Assembly: GCF_988242995.1 (NCBI RefSeq)
Contig: NZ_OZ547043.1
Reading direction: 5' to 3' (one strand)
Length of the DNA: 64,000 nt
Below are positions 2,752 through 35,269 of this stretch, piece by piece. Position 1 is the first letter of the stretch, and every line of letters starts with the position of its first letter. The notes beneath the pieces are model-generated. The model was not told the DNA's origin and did not search any database. It saw only the letters and a list, made by a program, of their open reading frames with translations. The translations under genes and the position numbers were made by a program.

Positions 2752-3230
2752 TATCCTGCCCCCGTCATACCCGTGAATCTGGTCGCCATACTGCCGGCCT
2801 TACCGATGAGCGACTCCGCCTGTTTACCAATATCGCCATAAAGCGCGGCCAGTGATTCATCAACGCGGGTGAGAGACAGCGTAAAATCAATTTTCCGGGG
2901 TGTGCCGTCTGCAAAGAAAATACTCCCTGTTTCACTCACCCTGCTGATGACATACATGCCGTAAATCATGCCGGTGCCATCCAGCAACGGCCACGCCCGG
3001 CCTTCCTCTGCCATCAGCCTGAGAGTGGTCATCGTCAGCTTGCCGCCGGTCAGTTCGGGATAAAGCACACCGGCAAGCGTGATGTTTTCCTCGCCAACGC
3101 CGAGAAACTGATAGGCATCCCGTTTACCGATACGGGAATTTGAAGGCCAGCGATAATCAGATTCACGCTGCATGGTCTGGTGTGGCAACGTCTGGCGCAT
3201 AAAAACAAACATACCTAACGCGAGCATCAT
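2751..3230 (-). CDS. U: Tail protein gpU
   Basis: 159 aa, P2 gpU length and position; stop-start overlap with D. Confidence 0.9.
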   Translation of the reverse strand: MMLALGMFVFMRQTLPHQTMQRESDYRWPSNSRIGKRDAYQFLGVGEENITLAGVLYPELTGGKLTMTTLRLMAEEGRAWPLLDGTGMIYGMYVISRVSETGSIFFADGTPRKIDFTLSLTRVDESLAALYGDIGKQAESLIGKAGSMATRFTGMTGAG

Positions 3231-3244
3231 TTTTCGTCACCTCC

Positions 3245-5692
3245 TTAACCGTCATGCATCATGCTGGCACGGGCGCGCGCACGTTTATCCCGCTCGTATT
3301 TTTCGAGCGCATCCTGTAACTGGCGGTCAAGCTGTGTCCCCGGCGCAGTACCGCCCGTCAGGTTGATGTGATATTCGTTTTTACTCTGGTCCACATAAGA
3401 GCGGCCAGCCAGTGCCGTGACTGGCTGATAAGCCTGATAGCCTGCATAAGAGCTGGTCGCCGGAATATAACCACCGGTGCCATACGTGGCGGCATGAGTT
3501 CTGGCGGCGGTCTGGTCAAGTGTGTCTGACTCTTTGTTGATGACCCCGAGCTTTTCCAGTACCCAGTCAATACCGCTGCGCAGTTTGTTGAACGCATTAA
3601 GCGGCAGCATCAACGCGTCAGCCAGTGCCTGCCCGAACATGACGCCCGTATCACGGCAACGGTTCAGGGTGTCCCGGGTGGCTTTGACCGGGGCAATCAG
3701 GTTTTTAAACCACTGCCACGCGGCCTGTAACTTTTCGCCCAGCCAGTCAAACACCGGCTTAAGTGGCGTGAACAGTTCCCCCACCGGCGCAAATGCCGCT
3801 TTCAGCCCTTCAACCACACCGCCAAAGAATGCGCTGACAGGCTCCCAGTATTTACGGATAAGTAACGCCCCGGCGACAATGGCGGCCACCACGGCCACAA
3901 CCGGCCAGCTAATCGCCCCGATGGCCGTCATAACAGCACTGCCAACCGTCGTGAAGATTGCTCCCATTGCGCCTGCTGCCGCGATGATGGCATTGATGCC
4001 GGTGATAACCGGCCAGGCTACGAGGCCAATGGCACCGATGACACCAATCAGCGCCAGTGCACCACCGACAATGATGCCGATGGTTGACGCCAGTGATTTG
4101 TTTTTCTGTATCCAGCCGTCGAGTTTTAACACATACTTTGTGGCCGTCTGCGTGAGCTTACGCAGTGCGCCTTCCTGCTGGTCAAACAGGTCAGTCCCCA
4201 CCGCCTCATAAGCGGACTGAAACTCCTTAAAGTCACCGCCGAGGTTGTCCTGCATGATATTTACCAGCTCGGCGGTCTTCCCGTCTGAGGCTTTAAACGC
4301 AGCGGTCAGTTTGTCCAGCTTTCCAGTTGAGGCGGCAGTCATCAGCACGGCGGCGGCTGAGCTGGCCTCCTCCCCGAAAATAGTTTTCATGTATTCAGCC
4401 TGCTGGGCAGTACCGAGCCGGTTTTTCTCAAAACTGGCCTGCATTTCTTTCAGAATGGTAAATACTGGTCGAGTATTCCCTTTACTGTCTGAGGTTTTCA
4501 CGCCAAGCTCTTTCAGTGCATCCCATGCTTTTCCCGTCGGTGCCTGCAGGCGGCTTAACACGGCACGGCTTCCCGTCCCCGCCATTGAACCGGTAATTTT
4601 TGCATCATGCAGCGCCCCGACCATTGCGGCGGTTTCTTCAATGCTGACACCAGCATTTTTTGCCACAGGTGCGGCATAGGTCAGCGCATCGCTCATGCCA
4701 TCAAAATCGGCGGCGGTTTTGTTCATCGTCATGGAGAGAACATCCCCGATATGAGCGACCTTATCGTTTGAAAGCTGAAAGGCGGATTTCATCCCCATCA
4801 GCAGGGCGGCGTTTTCTTCCATCGTGCGACGGTTCGCCAACGCCATATTCAGCGTGACCGGCGTTGCCGCCTGAATGGCATCAACATCCCCACCGGCTTT
4901 CGCAATAATAATCTGCGCACCGGCTGCATCATCTGCCGAGGCTGCGGTATTGTCGCCGAGCTGGCGCGCCTGCTTGCGTAGTGCAGCCATTTCGGCGGAG
5001 TCTTTTGCCACACCGAGCACAGCCTGCAATTCTGAGTTTTTCTGCGCAAACTCATAACCGGGCATCAGCAACTTAACTCCGGCCATCGTTCCCGCAGCAG
5101 CAATCCCCACACCGGCAGCGCCCACTGAGGCCATATTTCCGGCCAGTTCCTTTCCGGCCTGATAACGCTGTTTTACTGCGTTAAGTTTTGCCTGTTGTGC
5201 ACTGACACGCGCCAGCGCGTCACGCTGACGGTTAAGCTGTGCGGTGGTTTCACTGATACGGTTTTTCAGTCCCTGCTCATCATGTGCAAGATTGCGGGTA
5301 TTAATTCCCACAGCGGCCAGTTCCCGCTGCTGGCGTTTAATGGAATCTGTCAGGCGGTTATATTTCGCCTGTAAGTCCTCCGCCGCACGCTTTGCGGATT
5401 CCAGCACTTTCGCCTGAGCACGGGTCGGACGTTCAGTGTTTTTAAGCTGTGTGGCAAGGGCTTCGGCTTCCTGCCGTGCCTTTTCAAGTGCATGACCAGT
5501 CACGGCAAGCTGTGCGCTGGTCTTGCGAAATCCCTCAATACGGGATGCGTGACCGTTCAGCTCGCGCAGTGATTTTTGTGTTTCCCGGATATCCCCCGAC
5601 AGCGACTTACTCGCTGTGCGGATGGATTTAAACGGGCGGGATGCCTGGTCAACAGCCCTGAGCAATACCTGTAATTTTACATTGTTACTCAT
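3245..5692 (-). CDS. T: Tail tape-measure protein gpT
   Basis: 815 aa, Ala/Gly-rich coiled and hydrophobic segments typical of tape-measure proteins; P2 T position. Confidence 0.9.
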   Translation of the reverse strand: MSNNVKLQVLLRAVDQASRPFKSIRTASKSLSGDIRETQKSLRELNGHASRIEGFRKTSAQLAVTGHALEKARQEAEALATQLKNTERPTRAQAKVLESAKRAAEDLQAKYNRLTDSIKRQQRELAAVGINTRNLAHDEQGLKNRISETTAQLNRQRDALARVSAQQAKLNAVKQRYQAGKELAGNMASVGAAGVGIAAAGTMAGVKLLMPGYEFAQKNSELQAVLGVAKDSAEMAALRKQARQLGDNTAASADDAAGAQIIIAKAGGDVDAIQAATPVTLNMALANRRTMEENAALLMGMKSAFQLSNDKVAHIGDVLSMTMNKTAADFDGMSDALTYAAPVAKNAGVSIEETAAMVGALHDAKITGSMAGTGSRAVLSRLQAPTGKAWDALKELGVKTSDSKGNTRPVFTILKEMQASFEKNRLGTAQQAEYMKTIFGEEASSAAAVLMTAASTGKLDKLTAAFKASDGKTAELVNIMQDNLGGDFKEFQSAYEAVGTDLFDQQEGALRKLTQTATKYVLKLDGWIQKNKSLASTIGIIVGGALALIGVIGAIGLVAWPVITGINAIIAAAGAMGAIFTTVGSAVMTAIGAISWPVVAVVAAIVAGALLIRKYWEPVSAFFGGVVEGLKAAFAPVGELFTPLKPVFDWLGEKLQAAWQWFKNLIAPVKATRDTLNRCRDTGVMFGQALADALMLPLNAFNKLRSGIDWVLEKLGVINKESDTLDQTAARTHAATYGTGGYIPATSSYAGYQAYQPVTALAGRSYVDQSKNEYHINLTGGTAPGTQLDRQLQDALEKYERDKRARARASMMHDG

Positions 5693-8206: not shown

Positions 8207-8235
8207 TTGACCATTCCAATAAAATGAATTATGAT
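8207..8235 (+). promoter_or_regulatory. Near-consensus sigma70 promoter for cargo gene at 8258
   Basis: -35 TTGACC (8207-8212), 17-bp spacer, -10 TATGAT (8230-8235); followed by GGAGG RBS at 8247-8251. Confidence 0.45.
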
Positions 8236-8257
8236 AATCGTCAAATGGAGGTGCACA

Positions 8258-8902
8258 ATGATCAAACACACCGCAGCAGAAAGGGAAACCAACACTTCAG
8301 CTAAGCTGAATGAATACCAGTTGAACCTTCTGAAAAGAATTAACAACCTCGCTATTTCCCTGATGCCTGAATTTGAAGACAAAAACCAGGCAATTAATGC
8401 TATCACGCTGGATGATAGTTCACTGATGCAATTGCTCTACACCGTTCAACTCGAACAGAAGACTCGTGTCAATGACTACGAACTACGTAAAGTGCGCCGT
8501 CGTCGCGAAAATCTGGAACGATTTTATCGTGGGCTTCAGGAGTTAGGCGGTACGCTAAAGGTAAATGACGTGGTCGATATTCTTGGAATCACCCGCCAGG
8601 CGATCAACATTCGCGTTAAGAAGAACAAGCTTTTAGCATTCAAGCAGAACGGTGATTTTATTTTCCCGAAATTTCAGTTCACAGATAACGGGCTGATTCC
8701 CGGCTTTGAAGACGTAATGGCGGCATTTGACGAGAATACCCATCCAATGCTGAGGTTGGGTGTGCTGAAATCACCAATAGAGGTTAATAGCGAAGGCCTG
8801 AAAAAGACGCCGATTCAAATCATGCAGGACGGCGCTAAAAATAGTGAACTTAGTCTGGCTATCCGTGCCGCTAAACAGTTCGGAAATCATGTATCCAGTT
8901 AA
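8258..8902 (+). CDS. Cargo protein with HTH and C-terminal DUF2384-like (Xre/ParS/MbcA antitoxin-like) region plus a ~110-aa N-terminal extension of unknown function
   Basis: 214 aa from ATG 8258 with GGAGG RBS; HTH-like DILGITRQAINIRVKK; C-terminal HPMLRLGVLKSPIEVNSEGLKKTPIQIM resembles the toxin-binding domain of RES-Xre antitoxins; ~40% GC versus ~52% in flanking phage genes. Confidence 0.55.
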   Translation: MIKHTAAERETNTSAKLNEYQLNLLKRINNLAISLMPEFEDKNQAINAITLDDSSLMQLLYTVQLEQKTRVNDYELRKVRRRRENLERFYRGLQELGGTLKVNDVVDILGITRQAINIRVKKNKLLAFKQNGDFIFPKFQFTDNGLIPGFEDVMAAFDENTHPMLRLGVLKSPIEVNSEGLKKTPIQIMQDGAKNSELSLAIRAAKQFGNHVSS

Positions 8903-8940: not shown

Positions 8941-9651
8941 TTACATTGGTTCTGGCGTAATTTCGAATCCAAGCAGTTCTTCGAACATCTCTTCACCTGA
9001 CATCGTTCCTTTGTGCCACCCTTTAGGGAAGATACCTTCGTCATTTTCGATGTAACTGGCATAAGGCACCATCCCCTGAGGGGTATCGGTAAAGGCTGGT
9101 GTACTATCCGGTCGTTCCCAAAAGGCATAACAGCGTTTATAGCGTTTATGCCTTGAGGTATAGGCTATCCCGTCATAGTCACGCCCGAAATGTGTATAAA
9201 GATGTTCCATTAGCCATTGAGTAAAAGTGTAATCCTCGTTCTCTAAGCTATCCAAAGGAATATGTAACAACTCACAGAGCGCTACAACATCGATCACTTT
9301 CACTGGCCTCATGACATCCACAGAGCACATATAGTGTTGTGAAAGTACCGATTCAGGATAAGAAATCGTCCCTTCGAGATGGAGCAAACGCCCATAAGCT
9401 TCTGCCGCCGCCGTTAACGCAGAGTCAGAGGCATACCATACCGCCACACATCCCCCTGGGGGGTTGTATCGCCCACATTCATTTTCCTCAATTGGCGCTC
9501 TGAAGTTGATTGCGCTTTCATACAACGCCCTTTGATGACGCTTCAAAAGACCAGAGCCTGGTTGAATGTCAATCGCCGGAATACGTCCAGATTTATTTTT
9601 TGCAGCAATTCCTTGTGCAACAATATTTTTTTCAAATGTCCATTTGGTCAT
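8941..9651 (-). CDS. RES-domain protein (predicted NAD+-targeting toxin-like effector)
   Basis: 236 aa from ATG 9651 with AAGGAG RBS; motif ECGRYNPPGGCVAVWYASDSALTAAAEAY resembles the RES-domain core (GGRWNPP...YLADS...E in MbcT/ParT-type toxins); candidate Ser in GIAYTSRH; low GC. Confidence 0.6.
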   Translation of the reverse strand: MTKWTFEKNIVAQGIAAKNKSGRIPAIDIQPGSGLLKRHQRALYESAINFRAPIEENECGRYNPPGGCVAVWYASDSALTAAAEAYGRLLHLEGTISYPESVLSQHYMCSVDVMRPVKVIDVVALCELLHIPLDSLENEDYTFTQWLMEHLYTHFGRDYDGIAYTSRHKRYKRCYAFWERPDSTPAFTDTPQGMVPYASYIENDEGIFPKGWHKGTMSGEEMFEELLGFEITPEPM

Positions 9652-10345
9652 TTTTACTACTCCTTCTATAAACAGATTAAGCCATAGGCTCCTCTCCATA
9701 TTGATTGAAAATAATCCCTACCGTGCTTGCCCGGCAGGGGGTATGAGAACATGTGTATCTCAATCTCGATTATACCAAGCAAATTTTCTATTTTTCGGAA
9801 ATTTAGAGAGTTTTTTTAATGCTTCGCATGCCTTCTCGATGTATTGATGGGGCTGAAAAGAAGAAATAACGCAGGAAGTTTTACGGAAAGGAGAACTATA
9901 AAGATTTTTTTCAAGTGAATTAGAAATAAGAACTTCGCAGGATACTGCATTTTTAGTGAAGATGGGTTGAGTTTCTCAGCAAGAGTCCCGCGAGAGCCGT
10001 ATTGACAGCATGCATGACTCGGAGATTATTCCCCATGCAGGATGGTACACCAATGCAAGAGTTGGTTTACGCAAATGATTGGATGATCGCGATTACCGAC
10101 CGTACATTGCGCAAATAACGTTCTGCGTCGATGCTATTAAGATGCCCCGACCACACCGTACGACGGACGCCGTAGTGATCCGAGCTTAAGAATAGATAAT
10201 CTTTTCTCTCCGGATTCACCGTTCGCAGTGCGTTTTCCATAGCTGTCGCAAGCACAATACTTCCGCTACAGGCACAGAGCGGACTGTCAGATTAGGTTTT
10301 ACTCTGTGCCATAGATGAGTAATCTCACACCAGATCTAATACGAT

Positions 10346-25554: not shown

Positions 25555-27387
25555 TCAAACAGAGCCCTGTTCAAAAACAGTATCAAAATATGGTAGGAGA
25601 GGATAAGCACACAGAAAGAAAATCAGGATGCATGCATATGTCGTTGTTTCATCGTAACAAGCATTAGTATATAAATTACCATGTGCTAATTTATGTCTTA
25701 AGGTTGCCCCACTCTTTCTGTTAAAAAGAACATCGATAGTCAAAACAAGATTTTTAGAAAAGATACTTTCCAAATCATCTCTGCATTTATCTAGAAGCTG
25801 AGAAATACTTGTTGACTCCTCTAATCCCTTATCCAAATATCTAGTAGCATCCTTTCCACTAAGCTCATAATAATAACGAACCATACCTTCCATTTGTGGT
25901 ATTAAAAGATAAGCTGCACTGATGTAATCTCCCTGCCATAATTTGTAAAAGCCCAAATTAAAAATCTCCCTAAACTCCGGCTTGACAATTGGACTAGTTG
26001 TAACCAATTTAACGAATGTTGACAACGTCAAGCCATGTTCTTGAGAAAGTACATAGCGAGCAGGTTCAAAGACACCGTTTACAAAAATCTTATGAGTAAT
26101 CTCGAAATTTCTTAGATATTGATCAATAACAACATCATCACTCATATCTTTTTTATTATCCAACGGCGGGATTGTATATATCTTACGCCCACTCTCATCA
26201 TTAATTTCTGTTCCAACAAAACTAGAGAATAAACTTTTTTCTGATAATCTTAAAACTTGTTCCCTCATGCTTTCAATATTTTCAATCGGTGTTTCACTCA
26301 TTAAAACTTTGAATATATCGGGCAAAGAACGCCCCGTCAGTTTTTTTTCACTTTCAGCAACCAAGTCACTAATATCAATAGAATGGCTTAAAGTGACATA
26401 TTCACTCCTTACTTCTTCTCTCAAATTAGCAAGTTGTTCCTTTAAATCTTCTATCTGTTGGCTATCACCACCGTACTGTCTTAATTCAGAGATAGCTGTT
26501 CTTAACCAAGAGATCTTACCCATATTATCAGGTCGTTCTGTTGCAACTTTAATAGTAATATTTGCAGATGCCAGTTTACATCTCTTGGCACGTTCATACT
26601 CACCATTTTTTTCATAAATAACTGCACTTGTCATATAAAGTGATTTTACAGCATCATAATATTTTTTATCTTTATGCTGCTCAGCCATCTTCTCAGCATT
26701 TTCCGCATACTGCAGATTATACCCATCAAAATCACGCACCATAAACCAAGTCAAATTATTGAAACCTTCAAAGATTAATCTTTCATTTTGAATACTATAA
26801 AGAGAATGAATGGCATTTTTAATCGCCATGTTTCCTTCTGATTTTCTAGGGTAGACCATTTTATTAATGTGCAAAGCCCTAGCAATATAATCACGAGCAA
26901 AAATAAAGCAATTTAAATCACTTTCATCCATGCTTTCGTTTTTTATTATTAGCTTTTCAATTGCTATATTTAGCATTTCAGCATAGGAATCAATTGCTTT
27001 AATTGCCACGTCTTTATTTTTCCGATTATTACACCAAACAACATCATATATTCTTGATAACAAAAATGGATTGGTTATTTTTTGAGAAACATATAAAAGA
27101 CAGTCATTCACCTGCTCATCAAAATCTTCAGGCAATATTGATCTTTTATTACCCCAAATCATTTGGGGTTCAAATGCTGGAGTGTTGTTAACAACTTGCA
27201 AATTGAAACTATATAGCATACCAAAAAGAGATGCTAATTTTTTCTCTTTGGGGTTTTCTGATGACTCAGCAATCCCATCCAGATATTTTTTTATTTTATG
27301 TGCATGAAATGTAACTGGTATATACATAAAAACACTATAATCTAGTGTTTCAAGCTCTTCCCTTGTAAGAACAAAGATATCATTCAT
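25555..27387 (-). CDS. Cargo protein, 611 aa, unknown family; C-terminal R-x4-H (HEPN-like) motif; candidate single-gene defence/abortive-infection effector
   Basis: Large ORF in the P2 tin/old position between cos and A; ~30-35% GC on sampled lines versus ~52% flanks; ATG 27387 with AAGGTG RBS (track start 27492 is a TTG); motif RHKLAH encoded at 25681-25698; no Walker A seen. Confidence 0.6.
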   Translation of the reverse strand: MNDIFVLTREELETLDYSVFMYIPVTFHAHKIKKYLDGIAESSENPKEKKLASLFGMLYSFNLQVVNNTPAFEPQMIWGNKRSILPEDFDEQVNDCLLYVSQKITNPFLLSRIYDVVWCNNRKNKDVAIKAIDSYAEMLNIAIEKLIIKNESMDESDLNCFIFARDYIARALHINKMVYPRKSEGNMAIKNAIHSLYSIQNERLIFEGFNNLTWFMVRDFDGYNLQYAENAEKMAEQHKDKKYYDAVKSLYMTSAVIYEKNGEYERAKRCKLASANITIKVATERPDNMGKISWLRTAISELRQYGGDSQQIEDLKEQLANLREEVRSEYVTLSHSIDISDLVAESEKKLTGRSLPDIFKVLMSETPIENIESMREQVLRLSEKSLFSSFVGTEINDESGRKIYTIPPLDNKKDMSDDVVIDQYLRNFEITHKIFVNGVFEPARYVLSQEHGLTLSTFVKLVTTSPIVKPEFREIFNLGFYKLWQGDYISAAYLLIPQMEGMVRYYYELSGKDATRYLDKGLEESTSISQLLDKCRDDLESIFSKNLVLTIDVLFNRKSGATLRHKLAHGNLYTNACYDETTTYACILIFFLCAYPLLPYFDTVFEQGSV

Positions 27388-27506
27388 CGTTTTCACCTTT
27401 TTCAGTATAAATTTGCACGCATTATTATTAGCAACATAATCATCAATAGTTAACACATGCAGATAGACAGCAATTTTACTATTATGCAACAAATTAAATC
27501 AGATGT

Positions 27507-29789
27507 TTATTGCTCTGAATAACAATAAAACCAACTCCACTCATCAGCGACCGGATACGTAAATTTTTTCCCGTTGTAATTTACGGTCGCTCCACGCGCC
27601 AGCGCCTCCATCTCCCATCGCTGCGGCCTGATACCGTTCTGAGCAAGGTCAACGCGGATACGGGTAATTTGCATTCGTTCCGACCGGGTCAGTCTGGCCG
27701 ATGGCGCTATTTCATGCGGTTTTAGCGGGCTTCCGTTTCTTTGCTGACGATTTAGCGTTCTCAGCCCGTGTTTTAATGCGCCCCTGAGCGCCTTCACGAC
27801 CTCCGGGTCATTCCATTCGATAACACCGTCATTAACCAGATTAAGCACTGCTGCGGCGTGCTCAGAAGGTGTGGGAGCCGGTAACGAAGTATCACCACCA
27901 GTGAGCTTTCCACAGTTATTGACAGGACTCCGAGGCGCGGCGATGCCGCTTTTTAAAGTCAAAGGCTCAACGACCGGAACTTTCGGCACAATGCGCCAGT
28001 CCGTCGTTCTGGTGATATGAATATGACGCGCGCCGAGATGCGGCGCGTAAATGCCGACCACTCTCTCAACTTCTTCCTCGTACTCGTTAACGTCATCCGA
28101 CGGGCTACGGGCAACCCTGACAGTCTGACAATCGCGCGGGACATTTGCCCCACCCTGCGCGCTGATATACAACGCAAAATCACCACTGTCTGCGGCGGCG
28201 CGTGCAGCCTCGACGCGTTCGTCAAACTCATCAGCAATGCTGACGCCGCGAGGCAATTTGCGTAGTTCACGGTAAGCCCCCATTGTCGGCAGGCCAACCG
28301 TTTTAAATTGCGGGATGCGCCACGTTGACGCCCATGCGGTAACAGCCGCGGCAGTGTCATTCAGCGGTCTGCCGGTATCATTATCGAGCTGACCATCCAG
28401 TGCATATCCGTCGATATTTTTTGAGATGTATTTCGCGATATACCCCGCAGCACCGCCCCGGTTAAGGTGTTTCGCCTGAAAACGGTTTCGCGCGGCTCCT
28501 CTTTCGTCGCCATCCTCTTTGAGCGCGTAGCGACGCATGATTTCAATAATCTGGTTACGCTGGCGTGGATTACAAAAAAGCATCATATGCCAGTGCGGCG
28601 TTCCGTCGTGGTGTGGCTCGACGACTCGCAAACCGTAGACCTGTAAATCATTATCCTTGAATGCCGTGCGCATCAGGCTCCAGATACGGCAGAGATAACG
28701 CTGCGCATCCTTTGGATTAAATGCCTCATCGTTCCAGCCGTGATTAAGCTGGACGGTTTTACTTTCGCCTTTTCCGACCTGACGTGTCGGGTGATACTTT
28801 GACGGCGCGGTCAGCGTGATAAACATCCCCACATCACCCTCTGCGGCGGCGTAACGCTCAATACCGGCAATGGTGTTCATCAGCTCCATCCGGCGAATTT
28901 CAGGATTAGAAATACTGCCCATCACCTTACTGATAAGGTCGATGCGCTCGCCGGTTTCCCTGTTTTCAAGGTCACACGATTTAAGAAATTCCAGATTTGC
29001 CTGGCGGCGTGCACGTACATCACGAATGGCATGTTTACTGGCATAAGGAGAACGGTCTTTATTCACCTCCCCGACAGCAATCAGTAACGCCTCATGCCAG
29101 CGCATACGCTGGCCTTTAAGCTGATGAGTCCACCACTCATCGTTAAACAGACGGGCAATGGCAGAATATGCCTGCCTCGTGGTCATCTGTCCTTTACGGT
29201 ATTTTTTCCAGTAGAGAGGGGAAATATTGAAAGCACGTGCAGCGCCAGCAACATGACCATAGAGGTGAGCCTGCGCCTCATCCGTAAACAGCGATTCTTT
29301 CTCGCCATGCGCATCCACCCAGGCATCGCAGAGTTCCTCATACATCATGAAAAGCTGCGATGAGATACGGGCAGCAAATTTTTTCAGCTCCTTGTCATTC
29401 ATTCCCGGCAGGCGCGCATACTGGTCGCGCTCTGCCAGAAACAGCAACGACGCATCGGTGTTCATTTCATGGCGCTGATTCACACGATCAATGCGCGGCC
29501 ATAAACGACGCTGAAAAGTGGATGTGAGGAAATAAAACCCGTGCACTGGGCTTTTATTGCGCCTGATGTAGTCATAGCGTGAAGTAAACAGCGAGCGCAA
29601 AAAGTAAGGCAGGCGGTTAATCGTGGATAAAACACCTTGCACCTGACGCATCTCATCACGTGTAAGAGGTCTTTCGCGCCCGACAGCCTCGCGTGGCGCG
29701 TTCCATGCATAAGCACCGGTAAACATCTTACCGGTGCCTGCGGCAAATGCTGACGGAGGGACAAAACGCCCGGAGGCTTTAACGGCCAT
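27507..29789 (-). CDS. A: Replication initiation protein gpA (rolling-circle nickase)
   Basis: 761 aa from ATG 29789 (MAVKASGRFVPP...), P2 A length; track start 29831 is a TTG. Confidence 0.9.
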   Translation of the reverse strand: MAVKASGRFVPPSAFAAGTGKMFTGAYAWNAPREAVGRERPLTRDEMRQVQGVLSTINRLPYFLRSLFTSRYDYIRRNKSPVHGFYFLTSTFQRRLWPRIDRVNQRHEMNTDASLLFLAERDQYARLPGMNDKELKKFAARISSQLFMMYEELCDAWVDAHGEKESLFTDEAQAHLYGHVAGAARAFNISPLYWKKYRKGQMTTRQAYSAIARLFNDEWWTHQLKGQRMRWHEALLIAVGEVNKDRSPYASKHAIRDVRARRQANLEFLKSCDLENRETGERIDLISKVMGSISNPEIRRMELMNTIAGIERYAAAEGDVGMFITLTAPSKYHPTRQVGKGESKTVQLNHGWNDEAFNPKDAQRYLCRIWSLMRTAFKDNDLQVYGLRVVEPHHDGTPHWHMMLFCNPRQRNQIIEIMRRYALKEDGDERGAARNRFQAKHLNRGGAAGYIAKYISKNIDGYALDGQLDNDTGRPLNDTAAAVTAWASTWRIPQFKTVGLPTMGAYRELRKLPRGVSIADEFDERVEAARAAADSGDFALYISAQGGANVPRDCQTVRVARSPSDDVNEYEEEVERVVGIYAPHLGARHIHITRTTDWRIVPKVPVVEPLTLKSGIAAPRSPVNNCGKLTGGDTSLPAPTPSEHAAAVLNLVNDGVIEWNDPEVVKALRGALKHGLRTLNRQQRNGSPLKPHEIAPSARLTRSERMQITRIRVDLAQNGIRPQRWEMEALARGATVNYNGKKFTYPVADEWSWFYCYSEQ

Positions 29790-30054
29790 ATGAGCCAAAA
29801 GCCTCTGAGCAACGCTTGCTGAGTTGCTCAACCTGCGCGTTTAAATCAGCAAAAGACTTTGCGCTTCCGGTCAGAATATCGTGATGCATCAGGCCGGAAA
29901 CGAGCTGGCTTAATTTCGGGTAATAACCAACCACCGCCAGCCATTCCTGACCGGCGTTTTTACCGCTTTCCGCTCTCTTTTTCTCGTGGAGAATAAACTG
30001 AAAGCTGTCACTGGTAACGACATAACGTTCGCCAATTTCGATACGAATACTCAT
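29779..30054 (-). CDS. Small early protein (P2 orf83-like position)
   Basis: 91-aa ORF between B and A, coupled to neighbours. Confidence 0.6.
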   Translation of the reverse strand: MSIRIEIGERYVVTSDSFQFILHEKKRAESGKNAGQEWLAVVGYYPKLSQLVSGLMHHDILTGSAKSFADLNAQVEQLSKRCSEAFGSYGR

Positions 30055-30275
30055 GCCATTCTCCGGTAATGCTTGTTTTTTGCTTCAAAGACTGACTGAC
30101 AGGAAACACAACGCGTGGCTGACGGATAAGCCGCACGACGGGCAGCAGGTATTGGCGCGTCACACTCTTCGCAAACCAGCGCAGAAACACCGCAATGTTT
30201 CCCCCTTGCCGCGTTAATCTGGCGCTCCAGTAATTCAGCCTGTTGTTCCTGAATAAAATCCACGTTGTCCGGCAT
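30051..30275 (-). CDS. Small C4 zinc-finger protein, DksA/TraR-like
   Basis: 74 aa with C-x2-C ... C-x2-C (CEECDAP ... CVSCQ); P2 early region position. Confidence 0.7.
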   Translation of the reverse strand: MPDNVDFIQEQQAELLERQINAARGKHCGVSALVCEECDAPIPAARRAAYPSATRCVSCQSVFEAKNKHYRRMA

Positions 30276-30277
30276 TA

Positions 30278-30580
30278 TCAGCTCCTTTTATCGTTAAGTT
30301 TCCTGGATACATCAACGCAATAACTGGCAAGTTCTGTCGTTAATTTTGTTAGTTCATCCACTGAGGAAATTTGCTTGTGGAATACAGCGCGTTTAACAAG
30401 TAAATTGACCACATCAGACAGGAGGTTTAATTCATTCTGATAAATCGCGATAACAGATTCAGTTATGTCGCGTTTTTCTTTATCAAGACAAAGTTGAATA
30501 AGAGACAAATCGCCATTTTTCATAACGGCGATTTTTAAGGCGTTATTCAGTAATACAACTGAACGAGAACAGGACATCAA
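30278..30580 (-). CDS. Small early protein (P2 orf81-like position)
   Basis: 100-aa ORF, translationally coupled in the early operon. Confidence 0.55.
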
Positions 30581-30834
30581 AGCACCTCCCCGCGAGACAA
30601 TCCGATATTGTGAAATTTTTCCGACTCCTGACTGAGCAGCTCGACTATCTCCACGCGGGATAACTCCGCCTTTGTGATGTGGCGAATCATGGCGTCAAGA
30701 TGAGAAGAAAAGCGGGTCGCAGCGTCGGCCTGTGCTTCGGTTCTGGCCTGTTGCAGCAGTAATGCGTATATACCGCACTGATTTTCAGAAACTGTATGCA
30801 TGACTTTCTCCAGGCAAAAAGAAGCCCCGCACAA
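30577..30834 (-). CDS. Small early protein (P2 orf80-like position)
   Basis: 85-aa ORF overlapping the downstream start. Confidence 0.55.
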
Positions 30835-30864
30835 TTAAGTGCGTTAAAAACTCTGGTTAATTAC

Positions 30865-31365
30865 TTAATGCAGATATTGCTCTGGTTTTACCGACGTCAG
30901 AATTGTCGGTGCATACTCAAACAGACTGAATAATTCACGTAATGCACGGAATAAAGCATCACGCCAGTAACATGATTCTTCATTAATTCGCCAGTATGGC
31001 TGGTTAAATTCTTTTTCTGTCAGTCGTGCGTGCATAAATAAAGTGCGACGCTGACTGACTGTTAAAAAACTAATATATGCATACTCACTTGCGCCAACCT
31101 GACGGCGTTTTGAGAATGCCCCACGCAATTCATCAATTGCACATACCAGTCGTTCACGTTCGACATCATTCATTTCTTCAAAACGCATCGTTGCGTGACG
31201 CTGTTTTAACTGAGCATGGAAGCAAACCGTTAGCCGTTCGCGTTCCATCATCTGATTATAATAATCACATGTCTCCTGCCAGCGAGGGACGGCAAGATGC
31301 TTACCAATTATCCGGCGCATAGTTGCTGGCTGTTTTTCAACGAGATTGAGCGTCATCACTGTCAT
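30865..31365 (-). CDS. B: Replication protein gpB (helicase loader-like)
   Basis: 166 aa, P2 B length and position. Confidence 0.85.
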   Translation of the reverse strand: MTVMTLNLVEKQPATMRRIIGKHLAVPRWQETCDYYNQMMERERLTVCFHAQLKQRHATMRFEEMNDVERERLVCAIDELRGAFSKRRQVGASEYAYISFLTVSQRRTLFMHARLTEKEFNQPYWRINEESCYWRDALFRALRELFSLFEYAPTILTSVKPEQYLH

Positions 31366-31556
31366 TTCCAGACCCTCCGGCTTTTCAGAAAGGTCAGAGC
31401 CTTTTTTAACGGACTCTGTTTTTTGGTGCGGATAATGATTCCCTTACGCCCCTTACCGTGGGTGATGGTGAAGTCAATCGCCCTGGGGCTTTCGTTACGC
31501 AGTAACTGAGCAATACAACGAGGCTCATTCATACGGTTCTCCTTAACGTGGTTCAC
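31362..31556 (-). CDS. Small early protein (P2 orf78-like position)
   Basis: 64-aa basic ORF between cox and B. Confidence 0.55.
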   Translation of the reverse strand: MNHVKENRMNEPRCIAQLLRNESPRAIDFTITHGKGRKGIIIRTKKQSPLKKALTFLKSRRVWK

Positions 31557-31818
31557 CGAGACCTAACCACATCAACCAGCCGTCACGAATCTCTTTAGGA
31601 CGGCTTTCATAAGCCAGTTTTAGTCCGTTATTCCATGCCGGAAGGTATACCCAATATTCACCTGCACGACCTGAAGCTGATTGTGGATCGGTCATATCAA
31701 TTACTGGCAGCTTTCCTTTATCGATCATCCGACGAACCGCTCCTGTCGATTTTCCTATTAGTTTTGCGAACTCCTGATAAGGAATCGCATCAGTCATGAG
31801 TGTTACTTGCTTGCTCAT
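31543..31818 (-). CDS. cox: Cox (excisionase / repressor of Pc)
   Basis: 91 aa, P2 Cox length; first gene of early operon, divergent from C. Confidence 0.85.
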   Translation of the reverse strand: MSKQVTLMTDAIPYQEFAKLIGKSTGAVRRMIDKGKLPVIDMTDPQSASGRAGEYWVYLPAWNNGLKLAYESRPKEIRDGWLMWLGLGEPR

Positions 31819-31932
31819 GTCGTCCTCCAGCCCTCATGAATTGCGTTTAATGCCTTATAATGCCTTTTAGTGCCCACATCCAAGCACTAAACAATCTACA
31901 TCTAAACTAAATACTATTGAGATCTAAACACC
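31819..31932. promoter_or_regulatory. Pe/Pc divergent promoter-operator switch region between cox and C
   Basis: 114-bp AT-rich intergenic region between divergent cox and C, as in the P2 immunity switch. Confidence 0.5.
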
Positions 31933-32232
31933 ATGTCAAACACGATAAGCGAGAAGATAGTCTTAATGCGAAAATCAGAGTATTTGAGCAGACAACAACT
32001 TGCTGATTTAACAGGGGTTCCGTATGGCACGCTGAGTTACTATGAAAGTGGTCGTTCAACACCTCCAACAGATGTCATGATGAACATCCTGCAGACCCCA
32101 CAATTCACCAAATACACTTTATGGTTCATGACCAATCAGATCGCTCCTGAGTCCGGGCAAATTGCGCCCGCTCTCGCACACTTTGGGCAAAACGAAACAA
32201 CGTCGCCCCACTCCGGTCAAAAGACTGGTTAA
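31933..32232 (+). CDS. C: Immunity repressor C
   Basis: 99 aa, P2 C length; HTH near N-terminus (RQQLADLTGVPYGTLSYYESG). Confidence 0.85.
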   Translation: MSNTISEKIVLMRKSEYLSRQQLADLTGVPYGTLSYYESGRSTPPTDVMMNILQTPQFTKYTLWFMTNQIAPESGQIAPALAHFGQNETTSPHSGQKTG

Positions 32233-32347: not shown

Positions 32348-33361
32348 ATGGCAATCAAAAAACTCGATGATGGTCGATATGAAGTGGACATCCGCCCTAC
32401 TGGACGTAATGGAAAACGCATCCGTAGGAAGTTTGATAAGAAAAGCGAAGCTGTCGCTTTCGAGAAATACACGTTGTACAACCACCACAATAAAGAATGG
32501 CTATCAAAACCAACAGACAAGCGACGTCTGTCGGAGCTGACACAGATCTGGTGGGATTTAAAGGGTAAACACGAAGAGCATGGGAGATCTAATCTTGGAA
32601 AAATTGAAATCTTCACAAAAATAACGAATGACCCATGCGCATTTCAAATTTCGAAATCGCTTATCAGCCAGTACTGCGCCACCCGAAGAAGTCAGGGTAT
32701 TAAACCTTCGAGTATCAATCGTGATTTAACATGTATTAGCGGCATGTTTACAGCCCTGATTGAAGCGGAGTTATTCTTTGGTGAGCACCCTATCAGAGGG
32801 ACAAAAAGGCTTAAGGAGGAAAAACCAGACACAGGCTATCTCACGCAGGAAGAAATTGCCTTACTGCTTGCTGCTCTTGACGGCGACAACAAAAAGATTG
32901 CGATTCTTTGCCTGAGTACTGGAGCACGTTGGGGAGAAGCAGCTCGTTTGAAAGCAGAAAATATTATCCATAACCGCGTCACGTTTGTTAAAACGAAAAC
33001 AAACAAACCACGCACCGTCCCGATCTCAGAGGCTGTTGCCAAAATGATCGCGGATAACAAACGAGGTTTTTTATTCCCTGATGCTGATTACCCTCGCTTC
33101 AGACGAACAATGAAAGCAATAAAACCGGATTTGCCAATGGGGCAAGCCACACATGCACTAAGGCACAGCTTTGCCACTCATTTCATGATTAATGGAGGAA
33201 GTATTATCACGCTACAACGGATACTAGGTCACACACGGATTGAGCAAACTATGGTTTACGCTCATTTTGCGCCAGAGTACCTTCAGGACGCCATTTCTCT
33301 TAATCCGCTAAGAGGTGGTACTGAGGCTGAGAGTGTCCACACAGTGTCCACAGTAGAGTAA
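32348..33361 (+). CDS. int: Tyrosine integrase
   Basis: 337 aa, P2 Int length; catalytic-region motifs (ARWGE, HALRHSFATH, VYAHF); 80 bp from attR. Confidence 0.9.
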   Translation: MAIKKLDDGRYEVDIRPTGRNGKRIRRKFDKKSEAVAFEKYTLYNHHNKEWLSKPTDKRRLSELTQIWWDLKGKHEEHGRSNLGKIEIFTKITNDPCAFQISKSLISQYCATRRSQGIKPSSINRDLTCISGMFTALIEAELFFGEHPIRGTKRLKEEKPDTGYLTQEEIALLLAALDGDNKKIAILCLSTGARWGEAARLKAENIIHNRVTFVKTKTNKPRTVPISEAVAKMIADNKRGFLFPDADYPRFRRTMKAIKPDLPMGQATHALRHSFATHFMINGGSIITLQRILGHTRIEQTMVYAHFAPEYLQDAISLNPLRGGTEAESVHTVSTVE

Positions 33362-33440
33362 CGTTTAAGGGCTTTCAGTGGTAATTTATGCCGCTCAAAC
33401 CCGCATTGTACCGTTGAAAGCCCCTAATGGTGACACCCTA

Positions 33441-33467
33441 AATCTCCCTTACACGGGCTTATTTTTT
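33441..33467. repeat. attR core, 27 bp
   Basis: Exact copy of 1160-1186. Confidence 0.85.
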
Positions 33468-33637
33468 GTGCATAAACCATAGAGACGGATTGATCCCAGG
33501 TGACCGTCTTCCATTGACCACATCGATAGAATCTCCCTTCATAGCACGATGCCTTTCACGTAACGGCATCGTGCTCGCACAGGTTCCGGCTAAGCACAAC
33601 CAGAACGCGCATGTTTGACGCTTACCAAAAAATATTC

Positions 33638-33955
33638 TCACTCTCCACATTTGAATGTCAGACGAGCGACGCCATGTAATCCTGCACCTTCTGTCTTCAG
33701 GTCAACTATCTGCATTTTTTTGCCCTGAGTAACACAGAAATGAGCTGCATCATTTTTTACTATATTTTCTGCACCAGATATTCTGCCCCTGGCTAAAGAA
33801 GCTTCGGCTTCGGTGTAGTATTGGTTATCGAGTTTACGCTGAATATTACTTTTATATGCAAGACCAAATTTACCGATACTTGTCTCATCATTATGTACAG
33901 CACACCCAGACATAAGAAAAACACTAATTAATGATATAGCAGCTATCTTTTTCAT
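33638..33955 (-). CDS. yegR: Small lipoprotein YegR
   Basis: 105 aa from ATG 33955 (GGAAGG RBS); signal peptide plus lipobox (LMSGC); E. coli yegR position before yegS. Confidence 0.6.
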   Translation of the reverse strand: MKKIAAISLISVFLMSGCAVHNDETSIGKFGLAYKSNIQRKLDNQYYTEAEASLARGRISGAENIVKNDAAHFCVTQGKKMQIVDLKTEGAGLHGVARLTFKCGE

Positions 33956-34369
33956 CTTACCTTCCCCCATTAAATACCAACGACACGCTCTGGTGTTAAA
34001 ATATAATAATGGCATGATTATTATAATTGAATAGGATTATAATAAATGTTCTGTACAACATTTCCTACATAAGTAGGAATTACAAACATGAAGCCCTGCC
34101 CAGGTATCCCCATGAGGGCTTTAATATATTTAGAATAAGATAGTGAAGATGCCACTGTTTAGTTGAATATTAGGTATATGCTCTTTTTTGAAATTTACCG
34201 GTGGCTACCGTTAACATTCACTGTCCCCATTGCAAGCTCCTGGTGGTAACCACTGAATCCTCCATACTTGAACTGATTTTTTATCCTCCGACTTTCATCC
34301 TGTTCTGACTCCACCTTTTCTTTTCTGCTCTACACTATCTACAGACCAATCATAAAGGCACATACGATC

Positions 34370-35269
34370 ATGGCAGAATTTCCCGCCAGCTTACTGATTC
34401 TTAATGGCAAAAGTACTGACAATTTACCATTGCGCGAAGCAATTATGCTGTTGCGTGAGGAAGGAATGACGATCCATGTGCGGGTCACCTGGGAGAAAGG
34501 CGATGCCGCACGATATGTAGAGGAGGCCCGGAAGTTGGGCGTCGCAACGGTGATTGCCGGTGGTGGCGATGGCACCATTAATGAAGTTTCTACGGCGTTG
34601 ATTCAGTGTGAGGGGGATGACATACCCGCGCTAGGAATTTTGCCATTAGGAACCGCCAATGATTTTGCCACCAGTGTAAGGATTCCTGAGGCACTGGATA
34701 AGGCGCTGAAACTGGCAATTGCCGGTGACGCCATTGCGATAGATATGGCGCAGGTCAACAAACAAACCTGTTTTATTAATATGGCGACAGGCGGATTTGG
34801 GACGCGTATTACCACAGAAACGCCGGAAAAATTAAAAGCCGCGCTGGGTGGCGTCTCTTACATCATTCATGGCTTAATGCGCATGGATACTCTGCAACCG
34901 GACCGTTGTGAGATCCGCGGTGAAAACTTTCACTGGCAAGGTGACGCCCTGGTCATTGGTATTGGTAACGGGCGTCAGGCCGGTGGCGGTCAGCAATTGT
35001 GCCCGAACGCGTTAATTAACGATGGCTTGCTGCAACTGCGCATTTTTACCGGCGATGAAATTCTTCCGGCTCTCGTATCAACATTAAAATCTGACGAAGA
35101 TAACCCGAATATTATCGAAGGCGCTTCGTCGTGGTTTGATATACAAGCCCCACACGAAATCACTTTTAATCTTGATGGCGAACCGTTGAGCGGACAAAAC
35201 TTTCATATTGAAATACTTCCGGCGGCGTTGCGTTGTCGATTACCACCAGATTGCCCATTGTTGCGTTAA
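34370..35269 (+). CDS. yegS: Lipid kinase YegS (DAGK catalytic domain)
   Basis: 299 aa; GGDGT motif of diacylglycerol-kinase-like fold. Confidence 0.85.

Follow-up and report, generated by a model that had tools for sequence, protein, structure and literature searches.

Four small genes between B and A in a P2-type prophage

The window, a stretch of 64,000 nucleotides from contig NZ_OZ547043.1 (NCBI RefSeq assembly GCF_988242995.1), carries four tightly packed minus-strand ORFs, orf80 to orf83, that belong to a P2-type prophage and lie between its replication genes B and A. These are orf80 (30577-30801, 74 aa), encoding a DUF2732 protein; orf81 (30278-30577, 99 aa from its ATG), encoding a DUF5405 protein; orf82 (30051-30275, 74 aa), encoding a TraR-family C4 zinc-finger protein; and orf83 (29779-30054, 91 aa), encoding a protein assigned to DUF5405 and phrog_154. 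The first-pass annotation had described four small coupled ORFs at this place, and inspection of the minus strand revealed junctions of only a few nucleotides: a 1-nt overlap between orf80 and orf81 (TGATG), a gap of 2 nt between orf81 and orf82, where an AAGGAG Shine-Dalgarno motif is present, a 4-nt ATGA overlap between orf82 and orf83 and an 11-nt overlap between orf83 and A, which starts at about 29789. The position 30580 given for orf81 in the ORF list corresponds to an upstream TTG, while the ATG form begins at 30577.

The interval originally proposed for the block, 29779-30834, held at its lower end only. The codon at 30834 is an in-frame TTG within a hairpin between B and orf80. Comparison of 78 related loci showed TCG, which is no start codon, at this position in most of them. 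The ATG at 30801 and the GGAGAAAG upstream of it, in turn, are retained in these loci, and the same ATG is the start in the P2 annotation. Sequence comparison thus places the start of orf80 at 30801, not at 30834. The hairpin itself (30818-30843, minus strand), found by a terminator scan, is weak (CGCAC-TTAATT-GTGCG, followed by GGGCTTCTTTTT) and is listed as a putative rho-independent terminator in the P2 annotation. The fold of the 71 nt around it was unexceptional (z = -1.6); its stem is retained in nearly all related loci.

The neighboring genes complete a P2-like early operon. Downstream of the block lies A (27507-29789, minus strand), the replication gene for the nicking endonuclease, taken from the ORF list and identified by the P2 annotation and the overlap with orf83. 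Upstream lie B (30865-31365, minus strand, 166 aa), with gpB at the same place in the P2 record, and an orf78 homologue (31362-31532, minus strand). For the latter we used the 56-aa form starting MNEPRC, although the ORF lister began a longer form at a GTG at 31556; in the P2 annotation, orf78 measures 171 nt and lies directly upstream of B. A Pfam search assigned no family to this homologue. The first gene of the operon is cox (31543-31818, minus strand), identified by Pfam Phage_Cox (E = 5.5e-48) and synteny with P2. A promoter scan located the early promoter Pe (TTGACA-17-TAGTAT; 31911-31939, minus strand), which drives the operon containing orf80-83, extends into the beginning of the divergently oriented repressor gene C (31933-32232, plus strand) and coincides in position with the annotated Pe -35 and -10 elements of P2 (NC_001895).

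Comparison with phage P2 and related prophages

The DNA of the region is 97-98% identical to 75 Peduovirus records, among them P2 with its annotated orf80-83, the very genes that the first-pass annotation had suggested for comparison. In P2 (NC_001895 P2p36-P2p39; AF063097; 97% DNA identity), the four genes show the same order, the same position between B and A, the same overlaps, the upstream hairpin and Pe. Orf80 is 100% identical to its P2 counterpart, Orf83 about 99%, Orf82 96% (71 of 74 residues; differences G25V, V30A and M73T) and Orf81 88-89%; Orf81 and gpA each differ by being one residue shorter. The two phages also differ in the genes after A, where P2 orf91, tin and old are replaced in the window by a 645-aa PDC-S39-type gene. 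The finding is hence correct but not new: P2 annotations have listed these genes for decades, and a biochemical characterization of the zinc-finger protein appeared in 2022.

By homology with P2, repressor C would block Pe in the lysogen and thereby keep the early genes, orf80-83 among them, silent. Once derepressed, the four genes would be transcribed from Pe, on a transcript that first crosses cox, orf78, B and the weak hairpin, and translated as a tightly packed series running into A.

Beyond P2, a block with the same family names is present in 1,671 of 5,426 complete E. coli genomes, as judged by the NCBI annotation. The four genes are conserved across P2-like phages, the opposite of what would have refuted the first-pass reading, yet they do not travel as one group. 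Related prophages displayed four architectures, namely 80-83-A, 80-81-83-A, 80-82-83-A and 80-81-82-83-A. At least 55 loci carried orf80-orf83-A without a TraR gene and others orf81 without orf82, in a scan that by design left out P2-type Orf83 alleles and whose counts are not frequencies. On this sequence comparison, orf80 and orf83 make up the constant part of the array, whereas either orf81 or orf82 may be missing, the two coming and going independently; the four therefore do not form a fixed unit. This division offers a guide to which genes are likely to be dispensable in P2 knock-outs. In the 186-type phages (Eganvirus, represented by Salmonella phage SW9 and Yersinia phage MHG75), an Orf80 homologue (DUF2732), TraR and an Orf83 homologue again lie upstream of A; in contrast to P2, orf81 is missing, and the Orf83 homologue is flanked by inserted genes, namely an RNase T-type exonuclease, a DUF3850 gene and a 276-aa ORF.

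Orf82 is a TraR-family protein

The C-x2-C...C-x2-C finger noted earlier in the 74-aa product of 30051-30275 was confirmed as a CxxC-x17-CxxC zinc ribbon, in which C35, C38, C56 and C59 align with F-plasmid TraR, share its x17 spacing and are invariant among related loci. The proposed TraR/DksA-family assignment was equally well supported. Orf82 scored 43.8 bits against Pfam PF01258 (zf-dskA_traR; cut-off 24.9) and 77.7 bits against the NCBIfam 'TraR family' model TIGR02419 (cut-off 59.7; residues 3-64), and its best solved relatives were structures of TraR on RNA polymerase (5w1s and 6n57; E about 1e-10). Matches to DksA models were confined to the C-terminal part, with scores far below the cut-offs, and the protein is of TraR length (74 aa versus about 73 aa) and has no long coiled coil as in DksA.

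F-plasmid TraR and lambda Orf73, which are distant DksA relatives of about 73 aa, carry an N-terminal helix with D3 and D6 followed by the same zinc ribbon. Orf82 is 41% identical to F TraR; of the N-terminal DxxDxA motif, which in this family extends to the region of the RNA polymerase active site, D3 and D6 are present, aligned with F TraR and invariant, whereas the third position is I8 instead of A8. P2 Orf82 likewise has no A8 and is active nonetheless (PMC9239242).

Binding to RNA polymerase, for which a pull-down had been suggested, has in effect already been shown for the P2 protein. [quoted passage not shown] About five times more P2 Orf82 than TraR (about 50 nM) is needed for rrnB P1 inhibition. 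At 96% identity to P2 Orf82, the protein encoded in the window is predicted to bind RNA polymerase at the DksA site. Its zinc ribbon would be located at the channel rim, and even without ppGpp it would lower initiation at rRNA and ribosomal-protein promoters and raise it at amino-acid promoters. As an outcome, host growth would probably be slowed and resources shifted to phage production.

Orf80, Orf81 and Orf83

The remaining three proteins belong to DUF families, and our literature search on DUF5405, DUF2732 and orf80/81/83 retrieved no functional study. Orf80 matched Pfam PF10809 (DUF2732) with 39.6 bits (gathering cut-off 25), an assignment shared by all homologues found. Its AlphaFold2 model (pLDDT 85) is a helical hairpin with helices at residues 3-44 and 49-71, for which neither fold nor sequence-profile searches of the PDB returned more than chance-level matches.

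Orf81 and Orf83 both exceeded the gathering cut-off of Pfam PF17399 (DUF5405; 21.6 bits), with 103.4 and 51 bits, respectively. BLASTP revealed no direct similarity between the two; in hhalign, only the C-terminal 56 columns, which comprise helices, related Orf81 to the Orf83 family (70% probability, E = 4e-5). All tblastn matches of Orf81 were of Peduovirus type and at least 75% identical. Orf81 thus appears to be a divergent, lineage-specific relative of Orf83, restricted to P2-type phages. No convincing solved relative was found for either protein, as profile searches of PDB sequences stayed at chance level. The Orf83 structure model was confident and comprises a sheet of four beta strands and two helices. 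With a confidently predicted fold that appears unlike any solved structure, Orf83 would be worth a pull-down or a crystallographic study.

Relatives of Orf83 occur far outside the P2 group. Gene 24 of Shigella phage Sf6 belongs to the same family (97 bits to the family profile), and its record notes 'similar to phage P2 gene Orf83'. Like Orf83, this gene and other DUF5405 / phrog_154 members are small early genes; unlike Orf83, gene 24 is part of the early-left recombination region in a P22-like phage, where abc2, ssb and erf are its neighbors and neither gpA-type replication nor an adjacent TraR gene is present. Further relatives were found in phiEt88 near exoVIII and recT, in the N4-like phage SP-058, in Bacillus phage Troll next to genes for DHFR and thymidylate synthase, and also beside DnaQ/RNase T-type exonucleases. 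This neighborhood argument covers about ten contexts, and the contigs of three distant homologues were mostly very short. Among the longer family members, one carries a DnaJ-like CxxCxGxG tail and another has probably been joined to SSB by a frameshift; those examined included no fusion to a TraR finger.

Orf80, Orf81 and Orf83 are too small and featureless to be likely enzymes; they would most likely bind other macromolecules during early lytic growth. For Orf83, the target is probably shared by all bacteria, for instance DNA or a conserved protein of replication or repair, because its relatives occur in phages of both Proteobacteria and Bacillus and always among early DNA-metabolism or recombination genes. 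Taken as a whole, the locus is best explained as the early-operon orf80-83 block of a P2-type (Peduovirus) prophage of E. coli, encoding one RNA polymerase-binding protein, Orf82, and three factors with a tentatively assigned binding role, a reading to which we give a probability of about 90%.

Alternative roles of the three small proteins

We considered whether the DUF5405 proteins, Orf81 and/or Orf83, might be partners or modulators of the TraR-like protein that form a complex with RNA polymerase like QisA-TraR of VP882. In that Vibrio phage, according to a preprint (10.64898/2026.07.27.740977), the gene immediately preceding traR is translationally coupled with it, and its product binds TraR and makes growth arrest much stronger. 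As in this QisA-TraR-QtiQ module, the TraR homologue of P2 is co-transcribed and coupled with a small neighbor of unknown family and repressed in the lysogen: orf82 begins 2 nt after orf81 ends, and its own end is overlapped by orf83 over 4 nt. In addition, traR is directly followed by the Orf83 homologue in 186-type phages (SW9 and locus L136), and in an unrelated lambdoid lineage (phiEt88 and loci L145, L187 and L197) a TraR-like gene lies directly 3' of the Orf83 homologue with a 4-nt overlap. These are, however, only two independent lineages with TraR adjacency, in different gene order. The loci without TraR between orf80 and A, those with orf81 in the absence of orf82, and Orf83 relatives without a neighboring TraR gene in Sf6, SP-058, yong1, UF_RH7 and Bacillus phages all speak against the partnership, which we consider unlikely. 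QisA (VP882 gp60), at 199 aa, also differs in that it has no detectable similarity to Orf80, Orf81 or Orf83; homology was rejected at hhalign probabilities of at most 0.3%. A P2 partnership is conjectural. By analogy with QisA, Orf81 on the upstream and Orf83 on the downstream side could constitute a second, unrelated class of TraR partners that tunes or redirects the RNA polymerase-binding protein, an idea weakened by the many loci with Orf83 and no TraR gene and in our view quite improbable. If it were true, the optional orf81-orf82 pair would represent a mobile 'growth-arrest' cassette within the constant orf80-orf83 backbone.

A second explanation casts Orf81 and Orf83 as accessory proteins of replication initiation, assisting gpA or gpB at the P2 origin. 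PHROG 154 and 265 are labeled 'replication initiation protein', and RefSeq has propagated this label; both genes are located between B and A, the overlap of orf83 with the beginning of A recurs in all Peduoviridae loci seen, and the relatives of Orf83 elsewhere sit among DNA-metabolism genes. Against this, no origin-binding, nicking or helicase-loading domain was recognized in either protein, neither of which matched a replication family in Pfam or NCBIfam or has a solved relative, and Orf81 is missing from many P2-type prophages that retain A. Sf6, N4-like SP-058 and Bacillus Troll, whose replication systems are unrelated, all carry relatives of Orf83, and this spread across P22-like, N4-like and Bacillus phages argues against the replication-initiation label and against a dependence on TraR alike. 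A P2 mini-chromosome is said to have been built from A and ori alone in the 1993 work of Liu, Saha and Haggard-Ljungquist. The label also circulates with the typo 'relication', suggesting a copied annotation rather than an experiment. We therefore see no visible basis for this database label on Orf81 and Orf83, which should not be trusted, and regard the accessory role as doubtful.

Selection on the block

Coding constraint was assessed by the Nei-Gojobori method on about 80 IMG/VR loci. No internal stop was present among the unique orf80-83 sequences, and dN/dS amounted to 0.17 for orf80, 0.16 for orf81, 0.21 for orf82 and 0.16 for orf83; B, at 0.03, and the 5' part of A, at 0.075, had lower values. 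Polymorphism peaks in orf81, whose pS of 0.097 exceeds that of the other three genes.

These values bear on the possibility, in line with the earlier remark that such small proteins are frequently anti-defence factors, that at least one among Orf80, Orf81 and Orf83 disarms host immunity early in infection. In its favor, all three are small early proteins without enzymatic character, orf81 and orf82 behave as optional cassettes, orf81 shows the most polymorphism, and gene 24 of Sf6, the Orf83 relative, directly follows the RecBCD inhibitor gene abc2. Yet at a dN/dS of about 0.16 amino-acid change is not in excess, the extra diversity of orf81 is mostly synonymous, Orf80 and Orf83 are nearly invariant relative to P2, and none of the proteins is strongly acidic, unlike DNA mimics. 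Our literature search returned no anti-defence activity for Orf80, Orf81 or Orf83. PADLOC-DB contained no match for any of the four ORFs, although this silence says little, as PADLOC holds defence systems and not anti-defence genes. With no PADLOC match and no sign of positive selection, an anti-defence role is left unsupported, and we deem it improbable.

Finally, the notion that orf80-83 are chance open frames or decaying remnants of a defective prophage, which could appeal to their shortness and to three of them lacking an assigned function, is refuted by the conservation data, since intact frames, dN/dS values of 0.16-0.21, Shine-Dalgarno sites and conservation across genera leave it a negligible probability. 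As judged from their sequences, orf80-83 are real genes, far beyond chance.

Genomic organization of the orf80-orf83 block

A P2-type prophage has its early control and replication region at about 27.5-33.4 kb in the window. On the minus strand, the ORF list contains cox (31543-31818, also matched by Pfam), orf78 between cox and B, B itself (30865-31365) and A (27507 to about 29789); the repressor gene C (31933-32232) and int (32348-33361) are on the plus strand. A sequence scan located a Pe-type promoter, TTGACA-17-TAGTAT, at 31939-31911. Between B and A, four small minus-strand ORFs follow one another: orf80 (30577-30801, 74 aa) overlaps orf81 (30278-30577, 99 aa) by 1 nt, orf81 is followed by a 2-nt gap to orf82 (30051-30275, 74 aa), with AAGGAG upstream, orf82 shares a 4-nt ATGA overlap with orf83 (29779-30054, 91 aa), and orf83 overlaps A by 11 nt. 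The interval 29700-30950 is matched at 97-98% DNA identity by 75 Peduovirus phage records, P2 included, and the P2 annotation names the four ORFs orf80, orf81, orf82 and orf83. The comparison with P2 orf80-83 proposed in the first-pass annotation was therefore apt: the block consists of already known P2 genes, one of which, orf82, encodes an experimentally characterized protein. It is present in 1,671 of 5,426 complete E. coli genomes, where the NCBI pipeline assigns the product names DUF2732, DUF5405 (twice) and TraR/DksA family.

The presence of four ORFs between B and A, as annotated initially, was confirmed, but their upper end had been set at 30834 and had to be corrected by 33 nt to 30801. 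Position 30834 is an in-frame TTG within the loop of the B-orf80 hairpin and reads TCG in the majority of 78 related loci, while the ATG at 30801 and the upstream GGAGAAAG are kept in these loci; we therefore place the orf80 start at 30801, in agreement with the P2 annotation. The hairpin itself (30843-30818) comprises five pairs followed by a T-rich run, and P2 carries an annotated "putative rho-independent terminator" at the same position; folding of the surrounding 71 nt was not unusually strong (z = -1.6).

Orf82 is a TraR-family protein

Orf82 scored above the curated cut-offs of Pfam zf-dskA_traR and NCBIfam TIGR02419 (TraR family). Its closest solved relatives are the TraR chains in TraR-RNA polymerase structures, followed by YbiI, with DksA as a weak match, and it has in common with F-plasmid TraR D3, D6, four cysteines at identical spacing, a PIPxARR stretch and KHY near the C-terminus. 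Only three residues distinguish it from P2 Orf82 (G25V, V30A and M73T). Purified P2 Orf82 is about equal to TraR in competing with DksA for RNA polymerase and inhibits rrnB P1 without ppGpp (IC50 250 nM), and a dksA deletion strain regains growth on minimal medium with P2 Orf82 (Gopalkrishnan et al. 2022, PMC9239242). The same paper cites Liu et al. 1993 for the halt in cell growth upon P2 Orf82 overexpression, and reports that lambda Orf73 slows host growth and enlarges the burst. Together, the family matches and the published biochemistry bear out the initial reading of the 74-aa ORF as a TraR/DksA-type protein, and the RNA polymerase pull-down suggested with it has in effect already been performed on P2 Orf82 (PMC9239242).

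Orf80, Orf81 and Orf83 are conserved proteins without assigned function

For the three remaining proteins, our analysis matches the published state of knowledge, that is, conservation without an assigned function. Orf80 is a DUF2732 member (Pfam) with a strongly conserved core. Its aligned homologues, down to 64% identity, are all from Enterobacterales where named and otherwise from unnamed metagenomic contigs, and none in this set carries a functional name. AlphaFold2 predicted a helical hairpin (pLDDT 85; helices 3-44 and 49-71), for which no relatives were returned by Foldseek or by profile searching of the PDB sequences.

Orf81 and Orf83 both match Pfam DUF5405 (103 and 51 bits, respectively; cut-off 21.6). 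BLASTP found no direct similarity between the two, and profile-profile comparison aligned their C-terminal helices at just 70% probability; on these matches, we regard the two as distant relatives. Orf81 is limited to P2-type phages (75 tblastn records, all at least 75% identical) and is 88-89% identical to P2 Orf81. Among the four, it shows the greatest polymorphism, with 42 distinct proteins among 83 sequences (pS 0.097), and dN/dS was not raised in orf81. The Orf83 family is far broader and comprises 281 representative clusters in an exhaustive HMMER search and 178 phage records by tblastn. Among the members are Sf6 gene 24, annotated as "similar to phage P2 gene Orf83" in its own record, Erwinia phage phiEt88 gp36, proteins of an N4-like Salmonella phage, Hafnia phage yong1 and a Pseudomonas phage, as well as Bacillus Herelleviridae such as Troll, with family profile scores of 70-119 bits, gene 24 included. 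This spread across phyla points to a putative Orf83 target common to all bacteria.

The AlphaFold2 model of Orf83, built from a 119-sequence alignment, was confident (pLDDT 94, pTM 0.80), with predicted strands at 4-7, 11-15, 20-27 and 37-45 and helices at 48-62 and 68-90. Conserved positions lie in the sheet and loops (Y11, T14-S15-D16, G31-K32-N33-x-G35-x-E37, G43-Y44-Y45), and the helices are variable. The only informative domain fusion observed in the family is P0292, a 133-aa protein from the representative search, whose C-terminal tail (CSVCCGTG...CEACTGFG) resembles a DnaJ-type CxxCxGxG zinc-finger repeat.

Genes of the Orf83 family are repeatedly located beside genes of early recombination or of nucleotide metabolism: abc2, ssb and erf in Sf6, exoVIII and recT in phiEt88, DHFR and thymidylate synthase in Troll, and RNase T/DnaQ-type exonucleases in MHG75, UF_RH7 and the IMG/VR locus L087. 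A July 2026 preprint on Vibrio phage VP882 shows that TraR and QisA, which is encoded by the gene directly upstream, act there as a complex (10.64898/2026.07.27.740977). A DUF5405 neighbor of Orf82 might likewise be a TraR partner, and adjacency of DUF5405 and TraR-like genes does recur, in Peduoviridae and also in a phiEt88-like lambdoid lineage, where the gene order is reversed and the two genes overlap by 4 nt; Orf83 is, however, abundant without any TraR gene, and we consider such a partnership improbable. Orf80, Orf81 and Orf83 were rejected as QisA homologues, showing no similarity to QisA (VP882 gp60, 199 aa). No evidence was obtained for the anti-defence role raised initially for the small ORFs; the proteins are near neutral, and none of the four has a PADLOC defence-model match. 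Finally, the label "replication initiation protein" attached to phrog_154 and phrog_265 is unsupported, as Orf81 and Orf83 match no replication family, members of the family are present in phages whose replication systems are unrelated, and the label also circulates with a typo, suggesting a copied annotation.

Array architectures and recombination

A degenerate DNA pattern of the Orf83 motif, designed to exclude P2-type alleles, was run against IMG/VR, and the ORFs of the 120 loci returned, all of which (120/120) contain an Orf83-family ORF, were labelled with profiles built in this analysis. At least 55 loci read B-orf80-orf83-A without orf81 and orf82 (for example, L097, L099 and L103), about 30 have the P2 arrangement orf80-orf81-orf82-orf83 (L096, L131), a few read orf80-orf81-orf83-A without a TraR gene (L098, L114) and two read orf80-traR-orf83 (L136, L166), as in the 186-type phages SW9 and MHG75; because the pattern is biased by design, these counts show that the architectures exist, not how frequent they are. 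Thus, the array has two constant members, orf80 and orf83, and two separate cassettes, orf81 and orf82, that are optional.

Locus L027 (IMG/VR 2634166457_000019) and phage record OU784746 have an orf83 that shares only about 71-79% identity with the window, against 96-99% for their orf80 and orf81; these mosaic alleles indicate recombination within the small-gene array. In locus L035 (IMG/VR contig 2671180963_000004, about 2806-3850), the orf82 match ends after 137 nt, and the gene-A query matches only from about nt 250 of A onwards. The apparent deletion would take out the 3' part of orf82, the whole of orf83 and the beginning of A, so this is probably a defective prophage.

Selection on the small genes

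Each gene was extracted from 80 IMG/VR loci with an Orf81 protein, and the unique sequences of all four ORFs contained no internal stops. Using our own Nei-Gojobori implementation, we obtained mean dN/dS values of 0.17 (orf80), 0.16 (orf81), 0.21 (orf82) and 0.16 (orf83), compared to 0.03 for B and 0.075 for the 5' part of A, with the non-independence of pairwise values making these reliable to an order of magnitude only. The four ORFs are real genes under purifying selection weaker than that on the replication genes.

Within the orf81 coding sequence, an 11-pair hairpin (30507-30534, minus strand; AAATCGCCGTT-ATGAAA-AATGGCGATTT, about -12.7 kcal/mol, then GTCTCTTATT) is kept in nearly all of 82 related sequences. 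The sole common change, GGC to GGT, retains pairing as G-U; compensatory double changes are absent among these sequences, so the hairpin is only a candidate for a selected structure.

Other cargo and the prophage edge

Directly after A, where P2 has orf91, tin and old, a 645-aa ORF (25555-27492, minus strand) has matches to PDC-S39, a candidate defence system in PADLOC (E 3e-84), and to Pfam DUF7380/DUF4209. The gene is also found in Escherichia phage vB_EcoM-569R9 and looks like a different cargo gene in a known variable spot of P2-type phages. Two ORFs between the tail sheath gene and the tail-fibre genes (8231-8902, plus strand, and 8941-9699, minus strand) occupy what we take to be the P2 Z/fun cargo gene position. 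The 223-aa ORF of this pair had no match in Pfam or PADLOC, and the 252-aa ORF contains a RES domain (Pfam E 1.5e-12), as NAD-degrading toxins typically do. The right end of the prophage lies directly past int, which ends at 33361. In the adjoining region (33378-34370), the next ORF after int (33638-34015, minus strand, 125 aa) has an N-terminal lipoprotein-like hydrophobic stretch and Cys, and a 299-aa ORF, presumably YegS-like, starts at 34370.
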